From contig JAJHRE010000003.1 in NCBI GenBank assembly GCA_020832985.1, forward strand, positions 1-57,276: a stretch of 57,276 nucleotides of DNA, in the 5' to 3' direction. Positions 1 to 49,274 of the stretch are shown piece by piece. Made by a program: the position numbers and the translations under genes. Origin of the DNA: Desulfurococcaceae archaeon. Lineage in GTDB: Archaea > Thermoproteota > Thermoprotei_A > Sulfolobales > NBVN01. Numbering within the stretch: the stretch's first letter is position 1; each line of letters opens with the position of its first letter. The notes under the pieces were generated by a model that worked only from the letters and a program-made list of their open reading frames with translations, ran no database searches and was not told the DNA's origin.

Positions 1-447
1 TGCTAGGACTAGTAAGTCACCTAAGTTAAAACCAGTAGTAGGTGTTGTTAGTAGGTATAGTCCTGAAATAGATAGTATGAGGGCTAAGAACAACTTAATA
101 CTATACCTCCTCATGACTGTAGCTGAGTATATGTGTACGTAGATGACGCTTAAACCTGTAATGAATGCTGAGTTAGAGGCTGTAGTGTATTTAGTACCCC
201 ACCCCTGTAGCCATAAGCCTAAGGCGTAAGCTATACCTGCTAGTAAACCACCCCTAGCAGTACTGACTGAGAACCTACCTCTGTAGTAGGTGTATAGTAG
301 GTATGGTGTTAAGCCTAGAATAGCTATTAAACTCCTAACCCATGTGTAGGTATACTCGTTAACGTAGTACATGACAGTCTTAATGACTGGGAATGAAGTA
401 CCCCAAAGAACTGATGTAAGTATCAGAGCTACTAAACCCTTAAGCAT
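1..447 (-). CDS. EamA/DMT-family transporter; only the N-terminal 149 aa are present because the C-terminus runs off the window edge
   Basis: My own translation from ATG at 445-447 gives MLKGLVALILTSVLWGTSFPVIKTVMYYV... It is TM-rich, has an LWGxSF EamA-like signature, and stays open to position 1. It is absent from the ORF track because it has no stop in the window. Confidence 0.5.
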   Translation of the reverse strand, partial: MLKGLVALILTSVLWGTSFPVIKTVMYYVNEYTYTWVRSLIAILGLTPYLLYTYYRGRFSVSTARGGLLAGIAYALGLWLQGWGTKYTTASNSAFITGLSVIYVHIYSATVMRRYSIKLFLALILSISGLYLLTTPTTGFNLGDLLVLA

Positions 448-546
448 CGAGCTACTCAATACACCACACCATTAACTACCACTACTCACTTAAGACTTAA
501 GATAGTTATATTAAACATTTTTAACTTAATACTACATTAGTTTAAG

Positions 547-2136
547 GTGTTTGAAATAATACGTAAGGGTTACGTAGTAGATGTAGCTATAGTAGGTAGT
601 GGCTTAGCCGGTCTATCAACTACATACTTCCTAGACACACTCATGAGTGAGAGGGTTAGAGTAGCTATAATCTCTAAATCATCTCTAGGCTACGGTACAT
701 CAACCTACTACTCAGCAGGAGCTTTTAGATGTCCTGTTAATGGGTACTCCGTAGATGATTATATAAGGGATGTAGTTGAGGGTGGTAGGTATATTAATAA
801 GAGGTCTTTAGTTGAGTTAATAGCTTTGAAGTCTGTTAACACTATAAGGTCTTTAGAACGATTAGGTATTAGGTTTAAAGCTTCTAGAGGTACTTTAAGA
901 GTTGTTAGTGATGACCCGTTATTCCAGGGTAGGGAGTTAGTACTAGCTCTTAAGGATTACGTTGTTAAGAGACCTAACACAGTAGTTTTAGAGAATACGC
1001 ATATGTTAGACATAGTTAAATGTGGTGACGGTACGTTCAACACTGTATGTATCACTACTAACGGTGATTACGTAGTAATCACTAGTAAGGTAGTTGTCTT
1101 AGCTACTGGAGGTGCTGCTAACGTATACGTAAGGAGTGATAACCCTCAACAACTATCATGTGATGGTCATGGAGTATGTCTTAGGTTAGGACTACCTCTA
1201 ATTGATATGGAGTTCATACAGTTCTTCCCGTTAGGTATTGCAGAACCTGGGAGACCTACATTTATGATCCCATTCACTAAGGGTAGGTTAGTTAATAAGT
1301 TAGGTGAGGACATCATAGTTAAGTATGGGTTGGGGAGTCTAGGTAAGGCGATAATAGTTAACAGGGATAGACTGTCTAGGTATATGATGTTGGAGGTCAT
1401 GAAGGGGGACGGTGTTGACGGTACATTACTAATATATCCTGAGGAGAGTGATGAGGAGTTATCATCATTTGCTAATGAGTTGAGGAGGAGGTTAGGGTTA
1501 AGACCACCTATAAAGGTGTTACCAACAGCTCACTTCTCCATGGGTGGTGTTGAGGTAAGTGATGATTTAGAAACATCGATTAACGGACTCTACGTAGTTG
1601 GTGAGTTGGTAGGCGGTATCCACGGAGCTAATAGGTTAGGAGGTAATGCGTTAACCTCATGCATAGTTACTGCTGAGGTAGTAGCTAGGAGTATAACGGA
1701 CTACATAGAGAATAGGTTTAGAGGGAGTATTAGATTAAGTGATGAAGGTGTTAACCAAGTAGTTAATGAGTATAGACTTAGAGAAGGTAAGTACATACCC
1801 TCTGAAGTCAGGTCTAGAATCAGGAACTTAATGTGGTCTAAAGCAGGTGTTATAAGGAGTAATGACTCACTGAAGGAATGTATTGATGAGTTACTGAGTA
1901 TTCATGAAGAATTAGGTAAGGTCAGGATAGGGGGTCATGAAGAAGTTATTAAGTATTCAGAAATGCTAAACACACTACTCACATCAATAACTACTACATA
2001 CTCAGCACTACTAAGACGTGAGAGTAGGGGTGCACACTTCAGACTAGACTATCCAGAAGAAGACAGTAGTTGGGTTAAGAGTATAAGGATAACGTATTCA
2101 AACGGTAAATTCAATTATGAAATCTGTGAAAAATAG
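547..2136 (+). CDS. FAD-dependent oxidoreductase of the succinate dehydrogenase/fumarate reductase flavoprotein family, most like L-aspartate oxidase
   Basis: N-terminal dinucleotide-binding motif DVAIVGSGLAGLS. Also HFSMGGV and RESRGAHFRLDYPE, typical of the NadB/SdhA family. 529 aa. Confidence 0.7.
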   Translation: MFEIIRKGYVVDVAIVGSGLAGLSTTYFLDTLMSERVRVAIISKSSLGYGTSTYYSAGAFRCPVNGYSVDDYIRDVVEGGRYINKRSLVELIALKSVNTIRSLERLGIRFKASRGTLRVVSDDPLFQGRELVLALKDYVVKRPNTVVLENTHMLDIVKCGDGTFNTVCITTNGDYVVITSKVVVLATGGAANVYVRSDNPQQLSCDGHGVCLRLGLPLIDMEFIQFFPLGIAEPGRPTFMIPFTKGRLVNKLGEDIIVKYGLGSLGKAIIVNRDRLSRYMMLEVMKGDGVDGTLLIYPEESDEELSSFANELRRRLGLRPPIKVLPTAHFSMGGVEVSDDLETSINGLYVVGELVGGIHGANRLGGNALTSCIVTAEVVARSITDYIENRFRGSIRLSDEGVNQVVNEYRLREGKYIPSEVRSRIRNLMWSKAGVIRSNDSLKECIDELLSIHEELGKVRIGGHEEVIKYSEMLNTLLTSITTTYSALLRRESRGAHFRLDYPEEDSSWVKSIRITYSNGKFNYEICEK

Positions 2137-2148
2137 TATTTTAAACAT

Positions 2149-3533
2149 TTAATTGACGCTCTCAACAACTTTATCAGCAAGTACTAAACCACTACCTAAG
2201 GCATCATCATCCCAACTATACATTACATAACCTCTAACGACTGGATCGTAAACTGTAGCGTTATACCAAGTTATCTTGAAAGCTTTATCCTTAAGTAATC
2301 CCTCTATAACTGATTGGTTAAGGTCTAACCTACCATCACTTAAGTCCTTCTGAAGTGCTAGAGCTACTACACCGCTAACATGCGGTGCAGCGAATGAGGT
2401 ACCGCTTAAGTAGTAGTACTGACTTGGTACTGCCTTAATAGCTTGTAGTGGTGGATGTGCTGCTCCGTAAGGTGTGTACGGTAGTACTATATATGCTCCT
2501 GGAGCTAACACATCTAATCCCTGACCTTCAAGAGCTCTACTACTGAAGTTAGGTATGTATAATTGACCTTCAAGGTCTTCAGGAACATCAGCTAAACGCC
2601 ACCAACCATCAGTACTGAACTGACCTACCCAACCAACAGCACCTACAGATATCACTTCAGGATATGCTGCTGGGTAAACCATACCTTCAGTACCTTCATT
2701 ACCTGCAGCAGCTACTATGAAGACACCAACCTCTATAGCATAATCTATAACCTCCCTAACTAAGTCTGAAGGTGGTCCACCAACACTTAAACTAATTATT
2801 ACGGGGTTTACAATACCTGGTGGGTTAAGTACGTTACCACTTAACTTCTCTAACTCGAATAACTTAGCTATGTAGTAAATACCTGCAGCTAGGTCTGAAG
2901 TCCAACCCCAACCCTGATTACCTATTACCTTAACCGGTATTACCTTAACTCCTGGAGAGACTCCATCAACTACGTATAGATTGTAGACCTTAAACCCAAG
3001 TATTACTGCAGTGACTGCCATTCCATGACCATCACTATCAGATTCCCAAGCATTCTTATTCACAGATGCTTTAGGCCCTAAAACGCTGTAGCGAATTCCT
3101 CAGCTATACTGTCCTCGTTGAAGTAGTTCCTCCAATGTGGTTCTAACCCAGTATCTAGTACGGCTATGTAGACTCCAGAACCGTTTAACCCGTATACCTC
3201 ATGAACTGTGGGTATGTTAATCATATCTAAATTCCATGTAAGTATCCTCCCATCAAAACTACAGTTAGATGGTAATGACTCACTTAAAGGTCTTACTATA
3301 CCTGCCTTACTTACAGATTTAACATTACCTAACGTCTTAACTAAATCGTTTATTAACCCCTCACTAATTAATACTACTAACCCTCTAACCTCATCAAATC
3401 TATATACTACCTCACCACCTAACCTAGAAATTAGTTTTAGGTCATCATCACTTATATTACGGTTTAGTAAGACCTCTACTAATACGTAATTACTAGAATA
3501 CCTAATGTCTTGAGTGGATTCATAATGGATCAC
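2149..3533 (-). pseudogene. Subtilisin-like (S8) serine protease split into two ORFs by a frameshift (3078-3533 N-terminal part, 2149-3063 C-terminal part)
   Basis: The N-terminal ORF carries the catalytic Asp motif VLDTGL. The C-terminal ORF carries the His motif DGHG and the Ser motif GTSFAAPHVSG. The ORFs are in different frames (3533 mod 3 = 2, 3063 mod 3 = 0). The second frame is open only from 3099, so the shift lies in 3078-3099 at GCGTTTTAGGG. Confidence 0.75.
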
Positions 3534-3608
3534 GTTAACATTACGTAGTAGGGTTAATATCCTTTAAGTATATTAAGTCATTACTAAATCTATTAGACGG
3601 TAGTTTAT

Positions 3609-3899
3609 ATGGACGTATGTAGTGATAATACAGTATACATAGGTAGGAAGTTCTTCATGAGGTACGTATTAGCTGTTCTAATGAAGTTCAACGTCTTTAG
3701 ATGTAGTACTACAGTTATTAAGGCTAGAGGTAGTAATATATCTAGGGCTGTCTTAGTAGCTGAGGTGTCTAAGGACTTGATAGGCAGTATTAACTACTCC
3801 TCAGTAGATATAGGTAGTGTGAGTATAGAGTCTAGCGGTATTAGGAGGAGGGTATCAACTATTAAGATAGTTTTGTCTAGAGTTGGTAAGACTACCTAA
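3609..3899 (+). CDS. albA: Chromatin protein Alba (Sso10b family DNA/RNA-binding protein)
   Basis: VYIGRKFFMRYVLAV...VIKARGSNISRAVLVAEV...RRVSTIKIVL matches the Alba fold signature and is ~96 aa. Its 3' end overlaps the convergent AAA-Lon gene by 45 nt. Confidence 0.8.
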   Translation: MDVCSDNTVYIGRKFFMRYVLAVLMKFNVFRCSTTVIKARGSNISRAVLVAEVSKDLIGSINYSSVDIGSVSIESSGIRRRVSTIKIVLSRVGKTT

Positions 3900-6581
3900 C
3901 CTATCTCTTAAAATGTTGATTAACTCAGACTCACTCCTTAGGTTTAGAGCTACTAACCAAGCATCTAATTGCTTCTCAACAGGTATCACAACTATGTCGT
4001 TCTCCTCTAAGACTTTAATCTCATCACGAGACCTTAAGTAGTTCCACTTAGGCATTAAGAACTTCCTAACCCTAACCCTCTTAGTCCTTATAGCAGCTAA
4101 TATCTTACCAGAACCACGCCAGTCTAAACCACCTACAGGCCCTACACCACCCTTAATATCACACTTACCAGTCATAACTACCTCAGGACTTACAGGGATT
4201 TTAGATAGTTCTGATATTGCGGCTACGCTTAAGGCTAGACCTAAGCTAGGGCCGCTTACACCAGCCCCAGGAACACCTTCTAAAGGACTTATCACTTGAT
4301 ATCTGAAGTCGAAGTTCCTTATATCTAAGCCTATATTCATCATCACGTAATTCCTTATGTAGTCAACAACGTTTGAAGCACTCTCAACAACGCTTAAATC
4401 CTCAACAGATGTTCCAGGACCTAAAACTACGTTCTTAGCAACCCCTGTAATACTTACCTTACCGTTACCGAAGGGGTTAACACTACACTCAACTATTAAC
4501 GGTATCCCCTTCCTACCCTGAGTATCAGTACCTAAACCTACAACTACACCTGGTTCTAACCTATCCACGATTAAACTCTCCTGAATATCTATTAACTCCT
4601 TATCAATCTCCTGTTCAAGTGACTCAGCAGCCTTCTCGAAGTGGTAGAGTCTTAACTTATATTCCTCAACCCTCACATTAACCACATCTCTAATATCTGA
4701 GAGGTTTAATACCTCCTTAACCCTCATTAACTCATCCTCGTAGAACTTAAGGAGTTCCTCAAACCTAACACTGTTTAAGGAGTTCTTCAAGTCGTTAATA
4801 GCTGTTATCTCCTGAACCCTCAACCTATTAGCCTCCCTAATAACCTCAGCTATCACTCTAGGGGATACAACCCTAAACCTCTTCAAAACACTTAACACCT
4901 TCTCAGGAGTTACTTCAGGGTGTAGGTGTGGTAGGTACTGTCTTAAATGTACTTTAATAACGTCTAACCTCTCCATATCATTCCTAGGTAGTGGGATCTC
5001 AATAACGTATGGTTCAAACCTATTAATCACTGCCTCATCGATAGCGTCAATCCTATTAGTAGCGGCTATAACTATAACACCTTCTAGGGGTTGGAGACCG
5101 TCTAACTCAGTAAGTATTTGAGCTGTTAATCTATCACCTACTGGGTCACCCCTCCTCTTAGCAGCTATAACGTCGAATTCATCGAAGAACACAATACTTG
5201 GTGCGTGTCTCCTAGCAAGTGTGAATAAGTCTTTAATGTTTTTCTCAGGCTCACCAACCCACTTAGCATTAATTAGTAGTTGAGATGCTGGTACGTAGAA
5301 GAACGTTGCGTTAGCTTCCTTAGCTATAGCCTTAGTTAAGTAGGTCTTACCACAGCCAGGCTCACCATAGAGTAGTATACCTTTAGGTGGGACCCAACCA
5401 AGCTTACCTGCTAACTCAGGTCTTAAGCTAAGCATTACCAACTTAAACAGCTTATCCTTAATACCGAATAAACCGCCGATGTCTGAGTAGTTAACTGCAG
5501 GTTTGATCTGTAGTATAGTGCTTAAAACCTCAACACTCTTCTCCTGCTCTACATAACCTCTTAACTCCCTAGAAACTAGTTTAAAGTCTTCTAAAGTGAC
5601 GTTACTCCTGATTATCTCCTCAACCTTAGATGCTTTGAAGAACCTACTCAGTAACTTACCTCTTAGAGGTTCTATCTTCTTCAGATATACCTTAGTACAA
5701 GCATCTATTATATCGAATGGTGTGAGTTGGGTCTGCCTGTAAGCACTTACTGATTTCTCTAAGACGTTCATGACGTCTTCAGCCTTCAGATGAGTCCAGC
5801 CATACCTCTTAAGTTGTGAGTCAAGTACTGCTAATAACATCTCCCTAGTTATGTTTTGGTCTAAGTCTATGATGTAAGCCCTCCTCCTAATATCCTCCCT
5901 AATACTCTCAAACTTATTAGTAGCTGCTATTATGACTATCCTCTTATTAGTATCTACGATCTTATTTATATGTTCTATGAAGAGGTCCTGAACCTTAACA
6001 TCCTCCCTCTCAGCACCGTACATAGGCCTCTCAACCTTCATACCTATAGAGTGGAACTCATCTAAGAACATAACAGTAGGTGTTTCCTCAGCCCTCCTAA
6101 ATATAGCTGTTAAGTTCTTAAGTGATTGACCGTATAGTGGGTGGAAAATCTCATCACATTGTATGACCATGGGCTGGACGTTAACCCCATGTTTAAGACC
6201 GTAGATAACTGCCTCCCTCAAACACACCTCAGCAAGTAATGTCTTACCAGTCCCTGTAGCACCCTTAAGTATGAAGAACTTAGGTGGTTCCATACCCTTA
6301 AGTAAGTTTATTATTGCTTCATCCTTAATGACGTGGTAGGCTATTGCAGACATAATCATCTCGAACTCCTTATCCCTACCGACTAAGTCCTCCTTCTTCT
6401 TAGGGAATAACTTATCGAGCTCACGTAACTTCTTCTTAATCTTAGCCGGTGTTAACCTAGCATTCCTCCACTTCCTAAACTCCTTATTAGCTAGTAGTAA
6501 CGGTATGTAGAGTAAGTTCCTAAGTAACGGCCTCCTCAACCACCAGTAAGTACCTTCCTCACTCTTCATCGACGACATCAT
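3855..6581 (-). CDS. Tandem AAA+ ATPase fused to a C-terminal Lon (S16) protease domain
   Basis: Walker A 1 is GATGTGKT with Walker B MFLDEFH. Walker A 2 is GEPGCGKT with Walker B VFFDEFD and an SRH-like ATNRIDAIDEAVINRF. The C-terminus GVSGPSLGLALSVAAIS...MTGKCDIKGGVGPVGGL...GKILAA matches the Lon Ser-Lys dyad region. Confidence 0.8.
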   Translation of the reverse strand: MMSSMKSEEGTYWWLRRPLLRNLLYIPLLLANKEFRKWRNARLTPAKIKKKLRELDKLFPKKKEDLVGRDKEFEMIMSAIAYHVIKDEAIINLLKGMEPPKFFILKGATGTGKTLLAEVCLREAVIYGLKHGVNVQPMVIQCDEIFHPLYGQSLKNLTAIFRRAEETPTVMFLDEFHSIGMKVERPMYGAEREDVKVQDLFIEHINKIVDTNKRIVIIAATNKFESIREDIRRRAYIIDLDQNITREMLLAVLDSQLKRYGWTHLKAEDVMNVLEKSVSAYRQTQLTPFDIIDACTKVYLKKIEPLRGKLLSRFFKASKVEEIIRSNVTLEDFKLVSRELRGYVEQEKSVEVLSTILQIKPAVNYSDIGGLFGIKDKLFKLVMLSLRPELAGKLGWVPPKGILLYGEPGCGKTYLTKAIAKEANATFFYVPASQLLINAKWVGEPEKNIKDLFTLARRHAPSIVFFDEFDVIAAKRRGDPVGDRLTAQILTELDGLQPLEGVIVIAATNRIDAIDEAVINRFEPYVIEIPLPRNDMERLDVIKVHLRQYLPHLHPEVTPEKVLSVLKRFRVVSPRVIAEVIREANRLRVQEITAINDLKNSLNSVRFEELLKFYEDELMRVKEVLNLSDIRDVVNVRVEEYKLRLYHFEKAAESLEQEIDKELIDIQESLIVDRLEPGVVVGLGTDTQGRKGIPLIVECSVNPFGNGKVSITGVAKNVVLGPGTSVEDLSVVESASNVVDYIRNYVMMNIGLDIRNFDFRYQVISPLEGVPGAGVSGPSLGLALSVAAISELSKIPVSPEVVMTGKCDIKGGVGPVGGLDWRGSGKILAAIRTKRVRVRKFLMPKWNYLRSRDEIKVLEENDIVVIPVEKQLDAWLVALNLRSESELINILRDRLGSLTNSRQNYLNS

Positions 6582-20235: not shown

Positions 20236-21568
20236 CTACATCACCACTAAATCATTAAGCTAGAGTTTAAAACTTTACTACGTGTTATGCTGTGAGGTCA
20301 TTTAGTCATACCTAAGTTTATAACCTTACTAACTACTCTATCTATGGGTGGATATGCTAGCAAGTATAAAGAGAAGGCTTCAGTCATTATTCATAAGGTC
20401 ATACATAGAGTGTTCAGCATCTACTATCTCTAAAGCAGTCTCAAGGCTTCAGACATCTGTTACTGCGATGGGTGTTAACTCAGCGTTCTGTATGTTTAAG
20501 ATCTTGAAGAGTTTTAGAAAGGGTGGTAAACATAGTGTTGTGGGTGGAGGTAGGGATGGTGATAAGGTTTAAACTACTGAATAAAATTTAAAAGTTATGT
20601 TTTAGAATGTTAAGACTGCTCTCCCTCTAACCTCCCCCCTCTTAAGTTTCTCGATGGCTGTGTTAACCTCCTCAAATTTGAATAACTCTACACGTGGTTT
20701 TACCTTACCATCAGATACTAGTTTTAAACTCTGAAGTATGTCATTCCTTGTGAATCCTATATTACCTACTACCTTAATATCCTTTAATATCCAGTCTATC
20801 ACTGGTAGTGATAACTCACCTACTGGCAACCCTATAAGTACTAAAGTCCCTCCAGGCCTTAAGGATTCGTAGGCCTGCCTCATAGCTTTAAGGGATTCTA
20901 CCGTAGGTAATGCTACGTCAGCACCTCCTAAGTCCTTAATATATTTGACAGGGTCTTCCTTAGAAGCATTTACTACGTAGTCAGCACCTAACTCCTTAGC
21001 GAATTCTAACTTACTCTCAAGTACATCTACAGCAACTACCTTAGCACCTAACACCTTCGCTATCTGAACAGCGTTATGTCCTAAACCACCTATACCGAAG
21101 ACAGCGACTAAATCCCCGGGATATACCCTAGAAGCGAATGTAAGTGCTCTATAAGGTGTTGCTACAGCATCCGTAGCTGAAGTAGCTTCTGGGAACGGTA
21201 CGTTATCAGGGATTTTAAGTACGTGGGATGCTGGAGCTCTAACAAACTCAGCATAACCACCATCAACACTATAACCAGTATTTAACTGATTCTCACATAT
21301 ATTCTCACGACCTACTAAGCAATACCTACACCTACCGCAAGTCCACCAAAGCCATGATAACGCAACCCTATCACCAGGCTTTAAATGAGTAACACCATCA
21401 CCAACAACCTCAACAACACCTGCAACTTCATGACCAAGTATATGAGGTAGTGGTTTAGGTAATGGAATCTTACCCTCAATAATCTCAAGATCTGAATGAC
21501 ATATACCTACAGCCTTAACCCTAATGACGACCTCACCGAATCCAAGCTGTTACAGAATTGACGGTAGG

Positions 21569-21576
21569 TTTAAATA
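21569..21576 (+). promoter_or_regulatory. TATA box (TTTAAATA) of element A, about 25 nt upstream of the GC-rich RNA core
   Basis: ACAGAATTGACGGTAGGTTTAAATATC is conserved in copy B (ACAGATCTGATGGTAAGTTTAAATAGC) and copy C (ACAGTATTGATGGTTAAATAATGC). Confidence 0.55.
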
Positions 21577-21597
21577 TCTAAAATTATACAATTATTT

Positions 21598-21776
21598 AGA
21601 TCCTATGATCCGCACTGCGGTGAGGTGTACTGAGTAGTGATGAACCTATACCCTCAGATGGGAGCCTCATGGCGTTAGGCTCTACTGGGGCCCATGGAGT
21701 GTGGGTGAAGCTAATGAACCCACACCAAGGCCCAACCCCGTTAACGGAAATACAAGTACCGTTAGCGGGGAACGCT
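21598..21776 (+). ncRNA. Unclassified GC-rich structured RNA (core of element A) with a K-loop-like CUGA-GUA-GUGAUGA motif
   Basis: It is a GC island in an AT-rich genome. Proposed hairpins are CGCACTGCG, GAGGTGTA/TATACCCTC flanking the K-loop, GAGCCT/AGGCTC, GTGTGGGT/ACCCACAC and CCCCG...CGGGG. Differences from copy B preserve pairing (G-U versus G-C). Confidence 0.55.
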
Positions 21777-21998
21777 TAGGATCTGGGACCTCCTCAATAA
21801 CTAAAGGTTTACCGATTTCACGAAGTAATGCAGCTCTCATATAATCACAAGTAATTCTACACTAGAAAAATTATAAATTTTACAAATACTTAAGCATTTA
21901 TTAATAATAATTAAATTATAAATAACTTACATACTTACTTAAGTTTTAAGTTGAGAAACTATTTAAGGAGTCTTTAAATTACTTTAAGGGGTGTTGAT

Positions 21999-29215: not shown

Positions 29216-29295
29216 AACATAGACCCTAGATTAAATTTTAAGTAAAGCTAAAATACTTTAGCTCTACTAATGGAATGCTTTTTATAGCATTTCCG

Positions 29296-29545
29296 GGTTG
29301 CTGACGGCTCCCGCCATGAATGGCGAGGGTTCTAACCCTCTAGGGCTTTCCCTCATTGATCAGAGCCCCTCACGGGTGCGGCATCACTACTCAGGCCCCG
29401 CCGTCAGCTCCGGAGAGGTGTGAGCTCATAGCCTGTTAAGCTCGCCCACACCCAACACCAGGAAGAGGTACTGGAGCAAAACCTTATAATCTTTTCGATA
29501 GAACACCTCCCCGCCCTAAAGGACTGAGCCTCCAACAAAAAGCGA
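29296..29545 (-). ncRNA. Unclassified GC-rich structured RNA (copy C), a divergent and larger relative of the element A/B RNA
   Basis: A ~250-nt GC island with a long-range helix GCTGACGGC (29300-29308) / GCCGTCAGC (29400-29408). The identical K-loop-like motif CTGAGTAGTGATG lies on the minus strand at 29382-29394. The hairpin GTGTGGGCGAGCTTAA... resembles A's GTGTGGGTGAAGCTAA. Confidence 0.5.
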
Positions 29546-29775
29546 ATATTCATACATGTTATATAATTATAGCATTATTTAACCATCAATACTGTTCCAC
29601 CACCATTATTCAGTAGGTGGTAGTTCATAGTCCTTTACTTTCTCAGACTCATCCTATCTACTTTTCAACGGCTGTATTACCCTACCACTCTATAGGAGTT
29701 GTTCACCTCTAGTTACCTGAAGGTACACCCATCCCCATCAGGTAATCAGAGTTCATAAAAAGCTTCGTAAACCTC
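29530..29775. repeat. Direct repeat unit, copy 1 (partner at 30402-30680)
   Basis: Collinear shared blocks, copy 1 versus copy 2. CAGTAGGTGGTAGTTCAT vs CAGTAAGTGGTACTTCAT. TATCTACTTTTCAA vs TATCTACTTCTCAA. TTCACCTCTAG vs TTCACCTCTCTAG. GTTCATAAAAAGCTTC vs TTTCATAATAAGCTTC. The adjoining TATA/leader block is also shared. Confidence 0.6.
29559..29597 (-). promoter_or_regulatory. Promoter module of RNA copy C (ACAGTATTGATGG-TTAAATAA plus ATAATTATATAA)
   Basis: The same ACAG-NN-TGAYGG...TTAAATA...AATTATAYAA arrangement is found upstream of copies A and B. Confidence 0.45.
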
Positions 29776-48542: not shown

Positions 48543-48799
48543 AGCGTTTCCCCGCTTTCAATATCTACGGGGTTGGGCCTTGGTGTGGGTTCATTAGCTT
48601 CACCCACACCTCATGGGCCCTAGTCGAGCCTAACGCCATGAGGCTCCCATCTGAGGGTGTAGGTTCATCACTACTCAGTACACCTCACCGCAGTGCGGAT
48701 CATAGGGTCCAAGTAATTATGGATTCCTAAATATTTAAACATTACTCTAAGAACCAGATATCTACAGCTATTTAAACTTACCATCAGATCTGTAGCAGC
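48543..48799 (-). mobile_element. Copy B of the promoter-plus-structured-RNA module (inverted relative to copy A), intergenic
   Basis: The reverse complement aligns end to end with 21546-21776. The ~135-nt core has about 5 substitutions. It has an extra ~40 nt with a second TATA (minus-strand GTTTAAATAT, 48731-48740) and a shorter terminal hairpin loop. The K-loop motif is at 48665-48678. Confidence 0.75.
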
Positions 48800-48872
48800 C
48801 TTTCACCCCTCTTATACAATCATCTTAGTAAGGATTAATAATAAATATTTAATTACTTAGCAGGAGGGATAT

Positions 48873-49274
48873 GTGAGGTTAATGGTTAGGGAAGAAGCTT
48901 TACTATGGTTTAAACAGGGTGAGCATGATTTAAGGAAAGCATATAATGATTTAATCACTCAGGATTGGGATTCAGCTGCTTTTTGGTCTCAACAAGCTGC
49001 TGAGAAGGTGTTAAAGGCATTATTATTAAATGCTGGTATTACATTTAGAGGGCATAACCTCCTCGAAATAGCTGAGGTTATTGAGAAGGAATTAAGGTTA
49101 GAGGTTAAGGAGTTAATGAATGACCTTAGAGAACTTACCACACACTACATAATATCCAGGTACCCTAATGCGGCTAATGCATTACCCTACCAGCTCTATA
49201 CTTATGATAAAGCTAAAGATCTTGTTGAGAGGGCTAGGAGGGTGGTGGAGTGGGTAAGGCAGTATCTGCGTTAA
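48873..49274 (+). CDS. HEPN-domain protein (toxin-like partner of a HEPN-MNT pair)
   Basis: WFKQGEHDLRKA...SQQAAEKVLKALL...HNL...THYIISRYP is the classic archaeal HEPN (PF05168-type) pattern. Confidence 0.75.
   Translation: MRLMVREEALLWFKQGEHDLRKAYNDLITQDWDSAAFWSQQAAEKVLKALLLNAGITFRGHNLLEIAEVIEKELRLEVKELMNDLRELTTHYIISRYPNAANALPYQLYTYDKAKDLVERARRVVEWVRQYLR

Follow-up and report, generated by a model that had tools for sequence, protein, structure and literature searches.

A non-autonomous transposon carrying a structured K-loop RNA in a Desulfurococcaceae archaeon, with a putative role for the RNA as a TnpB-type guide

The stretch of archaeal DNA analysed here (57,276 nt; hereafter the window) holds, at 48543-48799, a GC-rich sequence that recurs in the opposite orientation inside a gene elsewhere in the same stretch. 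A preliminary description, made from the letters alone, had taken the two copies for a functional RNA unit that had recently transposed. The locus raises three questions: whether the sequence is mobile, what kind of element carries it, and what its RNA might do.

Extent, copies and mobility of the element

The bounds of the copy at this locus (copy B) are the positions where homology to the other copy in the window (copy A) and to 12 metagenome copies begins and ends. The features on which the analysis rests are listed below, with coordinates in the window.

48546-48796, minus strand: element copy B, 251 nt, with left end GCTACAG... and right end ...CGGGGAAAC
48797-48801, minus strand: left-flank motif AAGGCT/AGGCT, a candidate TAM, the last three bases of which are the left GCT
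48543-48545, minus strand: right GCT, either the element's last bases (ACGCT, TEM) or common junction bases
48760-48796, minus strand: left-end block GCTACAGATCTGATGGTAAG with a distal TATA-like box (TTTAAATA at 48769-48776), kept in all copies
48732-48739, minus strand: RNA-proximal TATA box TTTAAATA, with AGTAAT (BRE-like) before the box, kept in all copies
48546-48713, minus strand: structured RNA, ~168 nt to the element end and probably continuing into the flank
48665-48678, minus strand: K-loop motif CUGA-GUAG-UGAUGA, box D'/C'-like, in the 5' half of the RNA, invariant in all copies and present also in the diverged relative at 29287-29602
48626-48646, minus strand: hairpin GAGCCU-CAUGGCGUU-AGGCUC, 6/6 pairs invariant, within the module abundant in RNA runs
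48575-48620, minus strand: hairpin GGGCC...GGCCC with upper stem GUGUGGGU/ACCCACAC, with two compensatory pairs and the depth peak in RNA runs
48591-48601, minus strand: K-loop GAAGCUAAUGA, GA-closed, of the GGGCC/GGCCC hairpin
48550-48572, minus strand: subterminal right-end hairpin CCCCG-13 nt-CGGGG, stem conserved and apical part variable
21546-21773, plus strand: copy A, 228 nt including one GCT, inside a Zn-dependent alcohol dehydrogenase (ADH) gene
29287-29602, minus strand: diverged relative of the element, with a left-end-like GGAACAGTATTGATGGTTAAATA, the same CUGAGUAGUGAUG motif, a K-loop hairpin and a right end CCGGAAATGC

Pairwise alignment of the two copies (minus strand of 48800-48540 against 21545-21778) bore out most of what had been described of them. 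The arms of the inverted repeat, 21568-21741 and 48567-48740, are 174 nt long and 91% identical, and the substitutions that had been counted as "about five" come to six in a core of ~142 nt. One of them is the T/C change already noted, TATACC in A and TACACC in B, by which a G-U pair becomes a G-C pair in the hairpin GGUGUA...UAYACC. GCT stands at both borders of both copies, and the terminal CCCCG/CGGGG hairpin closes on a 13-nt loop in B, where A has an additional sub-stem; among the copies as a whole the apex of this hairpin takes three forms. The ~40 extra nucleotides of B had been placed between the promoter and the RNA start. They number 38 and actually lie upstream of the RNA-proximal TATA box, between it and the left end. 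Because every copy other than A has them, A is a deletion derivative, the deletion falling between two GTTTAAATA repeats. The apical loop of B's right-end hairpin (48561-48568) holds GTAGATAT, identical to the left-end stretch at 48761-48768, and the left-end stretch GAATAGCTGTAGATA recurs, reverse-complemented, in the right-end hairpin of a metagenome copy (L007). Exchange of modules between copies seems to have taken place. A second copy with few differences is ordinary for a transposon family.

Further copies came from two sources. JGI metagenome contigs were scanned for the two K-loop motifs, which gave 11 loci; eight of these are true copies (L003, L004, L006, L007, L008, L010, L011 and L012), with L004, L010, L011 and L012 representing one locus in related strains, and the remaining three are chance matches. 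Members of the HEPN protein cluster led to four orthologous copies of B (L066, L070, L071 and L072), for a total of 14 copies: A, B and 12 from metagenome contigs. A covariance model built from nine copies scored 197-220 bits on each complete copy (208 bits on 48545-48712 of copy B) and found nothing else in 75 loci and the window, and the pattern of the left-end block occurs twice in the window, against 0.02 occurrences expected by chance. No copy has a protein gene of its own beside it; the copies sit between or inside ordinary genes. A pattern scan of 185,579 reference genomes, a collection without the window's genome, gave one chance match. Pattern scans of viral contigs gave no true copy (the 16-mer matches covered the seed only), blastn against plasmids and phages gave no match to the element, and a protein query with a spurious antisense ORF that overlaps the RNA returned a single match, which was the L006 locus again.

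Relatives at greater distance were also seen. The one at 29287-29602 was missed by the covariance model; its K-loop hairpin has a compensated closing pair and sits 5' of the CUGAGUAGUGAUG motif. Others appear as loose ends and have GGGUGC/GCACCC as lower stem instead of GGGCC/GGCCC. At 48772, some contigs of metagenome runs X1 and X2 match the element as far as the distal TATA region, and CACAG(A/T)TAATG(A/C)AGACCCAGCTACGGCTCT follows. The ATG in these loose ends (ATG AAG/CAG ACC CAG..., 30 nt visible) reads away from the RNA and is possibly the start of a divergent gene in a longer form of the element; a scan for this sequence returned nothing.

Recent transposition is strongly supported by related populations, which hold ADH alleles without A and sites with and without B. 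At the site of copy A, the stretch 21546-21773 (228 nt) is exactly what main-strain contigs of metagenome runs X2, X3 and X4 lack. These contigs are as deep as the flanks and reach 62-126 nt to the sides of the joint, where three letters fit either side. The empty site is scarless, has a single GCT and reads CCAAGCTTAGG, and the ADH is intact across it (...VPDPK followed directly by LGFGEV...). In run X1 insert A is present and the window is matched without a mismatch. The ADH gene (20602-21840, minus strand) is interrupted only in the window's population, and since three other populations keep the gene intact, its knockout by copy A is very recent. Copy B is present in X1, X3 and X4, where flank contigs run into the element ends, and in L066, L070, L071 and L072; it is absent from X2, L067, L068, L069 and L074, which have a different insert of 422 nt at exactly the same position. 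A joint in X2 that skips 251 nt was considered as an empty site for B and rejected, being really the allele with the 422-nt insert. As B is present or absent among populations and A interrupts the gene of a single one, A is the younger of the two and the B site is polymorphic. Independent insertions were seen at seven sites in contigs, with one more seen as loose ends.

These data establish the element as a non-autonomous DNA transposon that carries a promoter and an RNA gene, and we infer that a transposase encoded elsewhere moves it in trans. Retrotransposition is ruled out by the extent of the mobile unit, which includes ~85 nt upstream of the predicted RNA start.

Copy B also lies, as had been described, 74 nt from a HEPN-MNT gene pair (left end at 48799, HEPN start at 48873). 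The HEPN gene belongs to PF05168, and the nucleotidyltransferase gene (PF01909) comes next. The link to this pair is coincidental, because orthologous loci with the different insert carry the same two genes. At one of the orthologous loci (L071:2220-3393) the gamma-glutamyltranspeptidase gene adjoining HEPN-MNT is split into several short frames, while the window and other contigs have an intact gene (520 aa); the broken gene is either a pseudogene or an assembly error.

Element ends, target motif and a shared insertion site

The element has no terminal inverted repeats: the left end GCTGTTACAG matches the reverse-complemented right end GCGTTTCCCC at 5 of 10 positions, and no inverted match of at least 7 nt was found between the ends. 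The left flank of all eight independent insertions has A, then G (seven insertions) or A (one), then GCT, before GTTACAG; at copy B, family-level contig depth extends into 48800-48804. The right end GGGGAAACGC is followed by T at four loci, by A at two and by a mutated GT at one, so that it reads ACGC(T), and GC is common to both junctions at six of seven loci. At the right end the hairpin CCCCG...CGGGG lies 4-7 nt from the terminus, and the left end has the mini-hairpins CTG-TTA-CAG and CAG-NN-CTG only. Taken by themselves, the GCT junctions fit a TAM/TEM pair, a 2-3-bp duplication or a serine-recombinase (IS607) crossover at GC alike. The GCT at both sides probably represents a target motif and a transposon-end motif, of the IS200/IS605-like or IS607-like kind, rather than an ordinary duplication. 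A TAM in the left flank, a similar TEM inside the right end and a scarless donor joint are hallmarks of IS200/IS605 elements (PMC10055086).

The alternative insert at the site of copy B bears on the same question.

L067:1494-1939, also in L068, L069 and L074 (window site 48545/48797): insert of 422 nt

The junctions of this insert are of the same GCT type (...GAAGGGC/TTAGAC...CCTTAGGC/TCATATC, with slashes at the joints). In the same orientation it holds an open frame that includes ...NYTSQICTICGE... and ends in ...DVKIMSENYTSQICTICGEIRKHP and a stop, and the sole Pfam match of this frame is PF07282 (TNB/zinc-ribbon of TnpB, Cas12f1-like; E = 4.6e-4). The insert has no similarity to the RNA element except for an 11-mer, ATCTGATGGTA. 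Judging from its sequence, it is a decayed tnpB transposon that used the same target and junction as the RNA element, which would place the RNA element among TnpB-bearing transposon families. A search for a full-length gene with the TnpB-remnant peptide as a padded query gave no candidate. A single intergenic site was hit independently by two different elements.

Three known systems resemble the element described here. The PATE-like minimal IS200/IS605 elements of Geobacillus stearothermophilus (Meers et al. 2023, PMC10055086) are likewise protein-less and multi-copy and have no inverted ends; they share a conserved left-flank motif, a similar motif at the right end, the scarless empty site and a structured RNA directed to and ending at the right end, and their proteins, encoded elsewhere, are likewise presumed to act in trans. 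Protein-less PATE derivatives "often encode omega RNAs", which act with TnpB made elsewhere (PMC10055086). In contrast to these elements, the host here is a hyperthermophilic archaeon, and the RNA has its own BRE/TATA promoter, contains K-loops and has no similarity to described omega RNAs; the cognate TnpB, TnpA or full-length element was not found here among 14 copies, 75 loci and 20 window ORFs. A thermophilic crenarchaeal system with a motif adjoining the left end is known in SisTnpB1 of Sulfolobus islandicus, the omega RNA of which overlaps the 3' end of tnpB; its TAM, adjacent to the left end, is AT-rich (TTTAA), and its right end is conserved except for the 3' guide (PMC10640517). The present element instead has AGGCT as its motif, no attached gene and an RNA that stands alone behind a promoter of its own. 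IS607-family elements with TnpB share with it the lack of inverted repeats, the identical GC/GCT at both junctions, the single copy of these bases in the empty site and a TnpB guide RNA at the right end, a role that is putative here. The target preference of IS607 is reportedly weak beyond the dinucleotide, whereas the left flank here is fixed at positions -5 and -4 as well (A, G). Two elements at one site suit a motif-directed (IS200/IS605-like) insertion better than IS607.

Promoter, fold and abundance of the RNA

The promoter is shared by the whole family, since all copies have AGTAAT-TTTAAATA (BRE/TATA) at a fixed distance from the core. With the usual archaeal spacing of ~26 nt after the TATA box, the RNA is predicted to start near 48713. 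Conservation of the RNA ceases at the right end, with no T-run terminator anywhere in the element. The fold has a minimum free energy of -62.9 kcal/mol (z = -2.95 against shuffles). In the consensus of nine copies the 3' half is well defined and consists of the GAGCCU/AGGCUC hairpin, the K-loop hairpin and the right-end hairpin; the 5' half, with CUGA-GUAG-UGAUGA, has two possible folds, local hairpins or a long helix formed with the hairpin that follows.

The change from G-U to G-C between A and B had been offered as a sign of preserved structure. It is a weak one: only two pairs change on both sides across nine copies, both in L006 and both in the GGGCC...GGCCC hairpin, and the covariation score was reached by 19 of 500 and 66 of 500 shuffles for two alternative structures. 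Among one-sided changes, ~9 pairs give G-U on the RNA strand, against 4 that give A-C. The change unique to B, at 48621, breaks a pair, and two of B's differences break pairs. Against the orthologous copies in L066 and L071, the RNA core of B shows differences at 5 and 6 of 168 positions (3.0-3.6%), compared with 5 of 176 (2.8%) in adjacent spacers and 1.4%, within a range of 1.0-1.5%, in flanking genes. Copy B diverges as fast as the neighbouring spacers, and the evidence for selection on it is weak.

Abundance was assessed from the summed depths of assembled contigs, a measure that is free of strand and end information. Depths in DNA runs were 24-240 for the unique flanks, ~170-4,800 for the 5' half and promoter (170-900 for the promoter part in X2), up to 23,000 for the left end, and up to 130,000 in X1 and 430,000 in X2 for the 3' module; the left-end block is more abundant than the internal part. 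The abundant 3' module corresponds to 48562-48657 and 21655-21765 in the window. This module (at an identity of at least 90%) and the ends are shared with a far larger family, carried by hot-spring organisms of greater abundance. In metatranscriptomes the 3' module reaches depths of 552,000-647,000 (X29), 129,000 (X30), 20,000 (X28) and ~350 (X26), and the left end and promoter 0-28, with a single contig at 28; for the 5' half and flanks there was nothing in X29, and in X27 a single 20-nt stretch at a depth of 5-10. The family's 3' module exists as an abundant RNA, and this RNA comes from relatives, as the window organism is absent from those runs. Raw reads of two other RNA runs, sampled at 3%, included none on the copy B locus.

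The earlier characterization as a functional RNA unit is therefore borne out in part. A consensus archaeal promoter, a GC-rich fold and a 3' module that is abundant in four metatranscriptomes speak for it; however, the core of B diverges at a spacer-like rate and covariation within the family is weak.

A guide scaffold and the alternatives

On balance, and with some reserve, we favour the reading that copy B is a protein-less element derived from IS200/IS605 or IS607 (PATE- or MITE-like), the RNA of which is a putative TnpB-type guide. The most likely role of the RNA would be that of a guide scaffold for a TnpB-like nuclease supplied in trans. The element presents, in order, the left end, a predicted TATA/BRE promoter, the ~170-nt GC-rich K-loop RNA and the subterminal hairpin of the right end. 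Transcription would run from the internal promoter through the right end, and the 3' tail of the RNA would be copied from flanking DNA because the RNA points at the right end and stops there; such a layout is that of a TnpB (OMEGA) guide RNA. With this RNA, a nuclease encoded elsewhere would find the empty donor site, recognised as motif plus right flank, and the action of the nuclease at that site would favour retention of the element. L7Ae, to go by the motifs only, would bind the K-loops and stabilise the RNA at high temperature. The partner was sought near the element, and the outcome counts against this reading: one metagenome pattern scan and 75 loci gave no nuclease or transposase gene beside any of the 14 copies, the left-end motif always directly adjoins the RNA, and the 20 window ORFs scanned with Pfam included no TnpA or TnpB; a serine recombinase was not seen either. 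Also against it stand the spacer-like divergence of copy B, the weak covariation, the lack of an Rfam match for the RNA and of similarity between the RNA and the TnpB-remnant insert, and the K-loops, which are not known as a feature of omega RNAs.

A different view of the same RNA, which we regard as unlikely but deserving of serious weight, is that the element is a mobile small-RNA gene that works without a nuclease, its product being an L7Ae-binding, box C/D-derived RNA that acts as a methylation guide, an antisense regulator, an L7Ae sponge or a selfish, highly expressed passenger. Such a gene would account for the perfect D'/C'-like CUGA-N4-UGAUGA and the second, GA-closed K-loop, for the great abundance in metatranscriptomes of the K-loop module, which would fit a stable RNP, and for the finding of no nuclease gene near any copy. 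Archaeal box C/D sRNAs also have a CUGA-loop-UGAUGA K-loop, are GC-rich in an AT-rich genome, have their own promoter and are small. The Rfam C/D families sR3 and sR14 do align over the 5' half, but weakly (E 2-4, 10-11 bits, against gathering thresholds of 38-41), and the element RNA falls below every Rfam threshold. Its terminal C/D boxes are degenerate (AUGAUCC and CAGA, with CGGA in one copy), only the C'/D'-like motif being canonical. Unlike box C/D sRNAs, it is three times longer, is carried inside a transposable unit and offers no unpaired 12-nt guides, the putative guide segments pairing with each other. Also left unexplained would be the coincidence of the RNA end with the transposon end and the presence of a TnpB-remnant element at the same site and junction. 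Other known RNA classes fared no better in Rfam. At the gathering threshold the window had no match, including to RNase P (type T too), SRP and H/ACA, and at E ≤ 10 neither copy matched RNase P, SRP or an H/ACA sRNA; one snoRNA model matched the opposite strand with E = 0.017, at less than half its threshold.

It is also conceivable, though we think it improbable, that the GC-rich hairpins are signals in the DNA only, ssDNA hairpins for a Y1 transposase, and that the transcripts are incidental read-through from the carried promoter. The weak covariation and the neutral rate at which copy B evolves would then need no further explanation, and ends that are far more abundant than the interior in DNA runs are what would be expected if they were needed for transposition. 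However, the module of ~100 nt, with three helices and K-loops, goes well beyond the single subterminal hairpin used by IS200/IS605 transposases, and all copies keep a consensus BRE/TATA at a fixed distance. Moreover, the module is strong in four RNA data sets without the left end or promoter beyond one contig of depth 28, and among one-sided changes G-U on the RNA strand outnumbers A-C.

We consider it very improbable that the RNA is a bridge-RNA- or seekRNA-like guide of an IS110/IS1111-type recombinase, pairing with ends and target around a core of GC or CT: the lack of inverted ends, the same short core at both junctions, the structured RNA of 150-200 nt at one element end, and the tie that a preprint reportedly draws between IS110 recombinases and archaeal Nop5 and K-turn guide RNAs (PMC11213020) would all suit it, but the RNA could pair with the left end or the end-to-end junction only over stretches of 7-9 nt that include G-U pairs and do not exceed scattered matches, the single 8-mer that it has in common with the left end is same-sense, the internal loops of the RNA (2-5 nt) are too small for bridge-RNA guide loops, and the alternative insert carries a TnpB remnant rather than a DEDD recombinase remnant; no recombinase was seen with the element either.

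Returning to the TnpB-type guide, a wider extension of that reading is possible but much more speculative: a large, undescribed family of OMEGA-type guide RNAs in hot-spring hyperthermophilic archaea, built on an L7Ae-type K-loop scaffold, expressed from their own promoters, carried by protein-less mini-transposons and serving a TnpB-like nuclease in trans, with the K-loop module among the more abundant small RNAs of metatranscriptomes. Our search of the literature found no report of K-turn-containing omega RNAs, and the nearest work concerns IS110 and Nop5. Regardless of the guide role, the element gives a clear view, in nature, of transposition still under way in an uncultured archaeon. If the RNA does guide a TnpB-like nuclease, it would be the first guide scaffold to borrow the archaeal K-turn/L7Ae system, and a thermostable, separately encoded guide would be of interest for genome-editing tools. 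It would also mean that guide-only satellites can make up the majority of copies of such a system in a genome.
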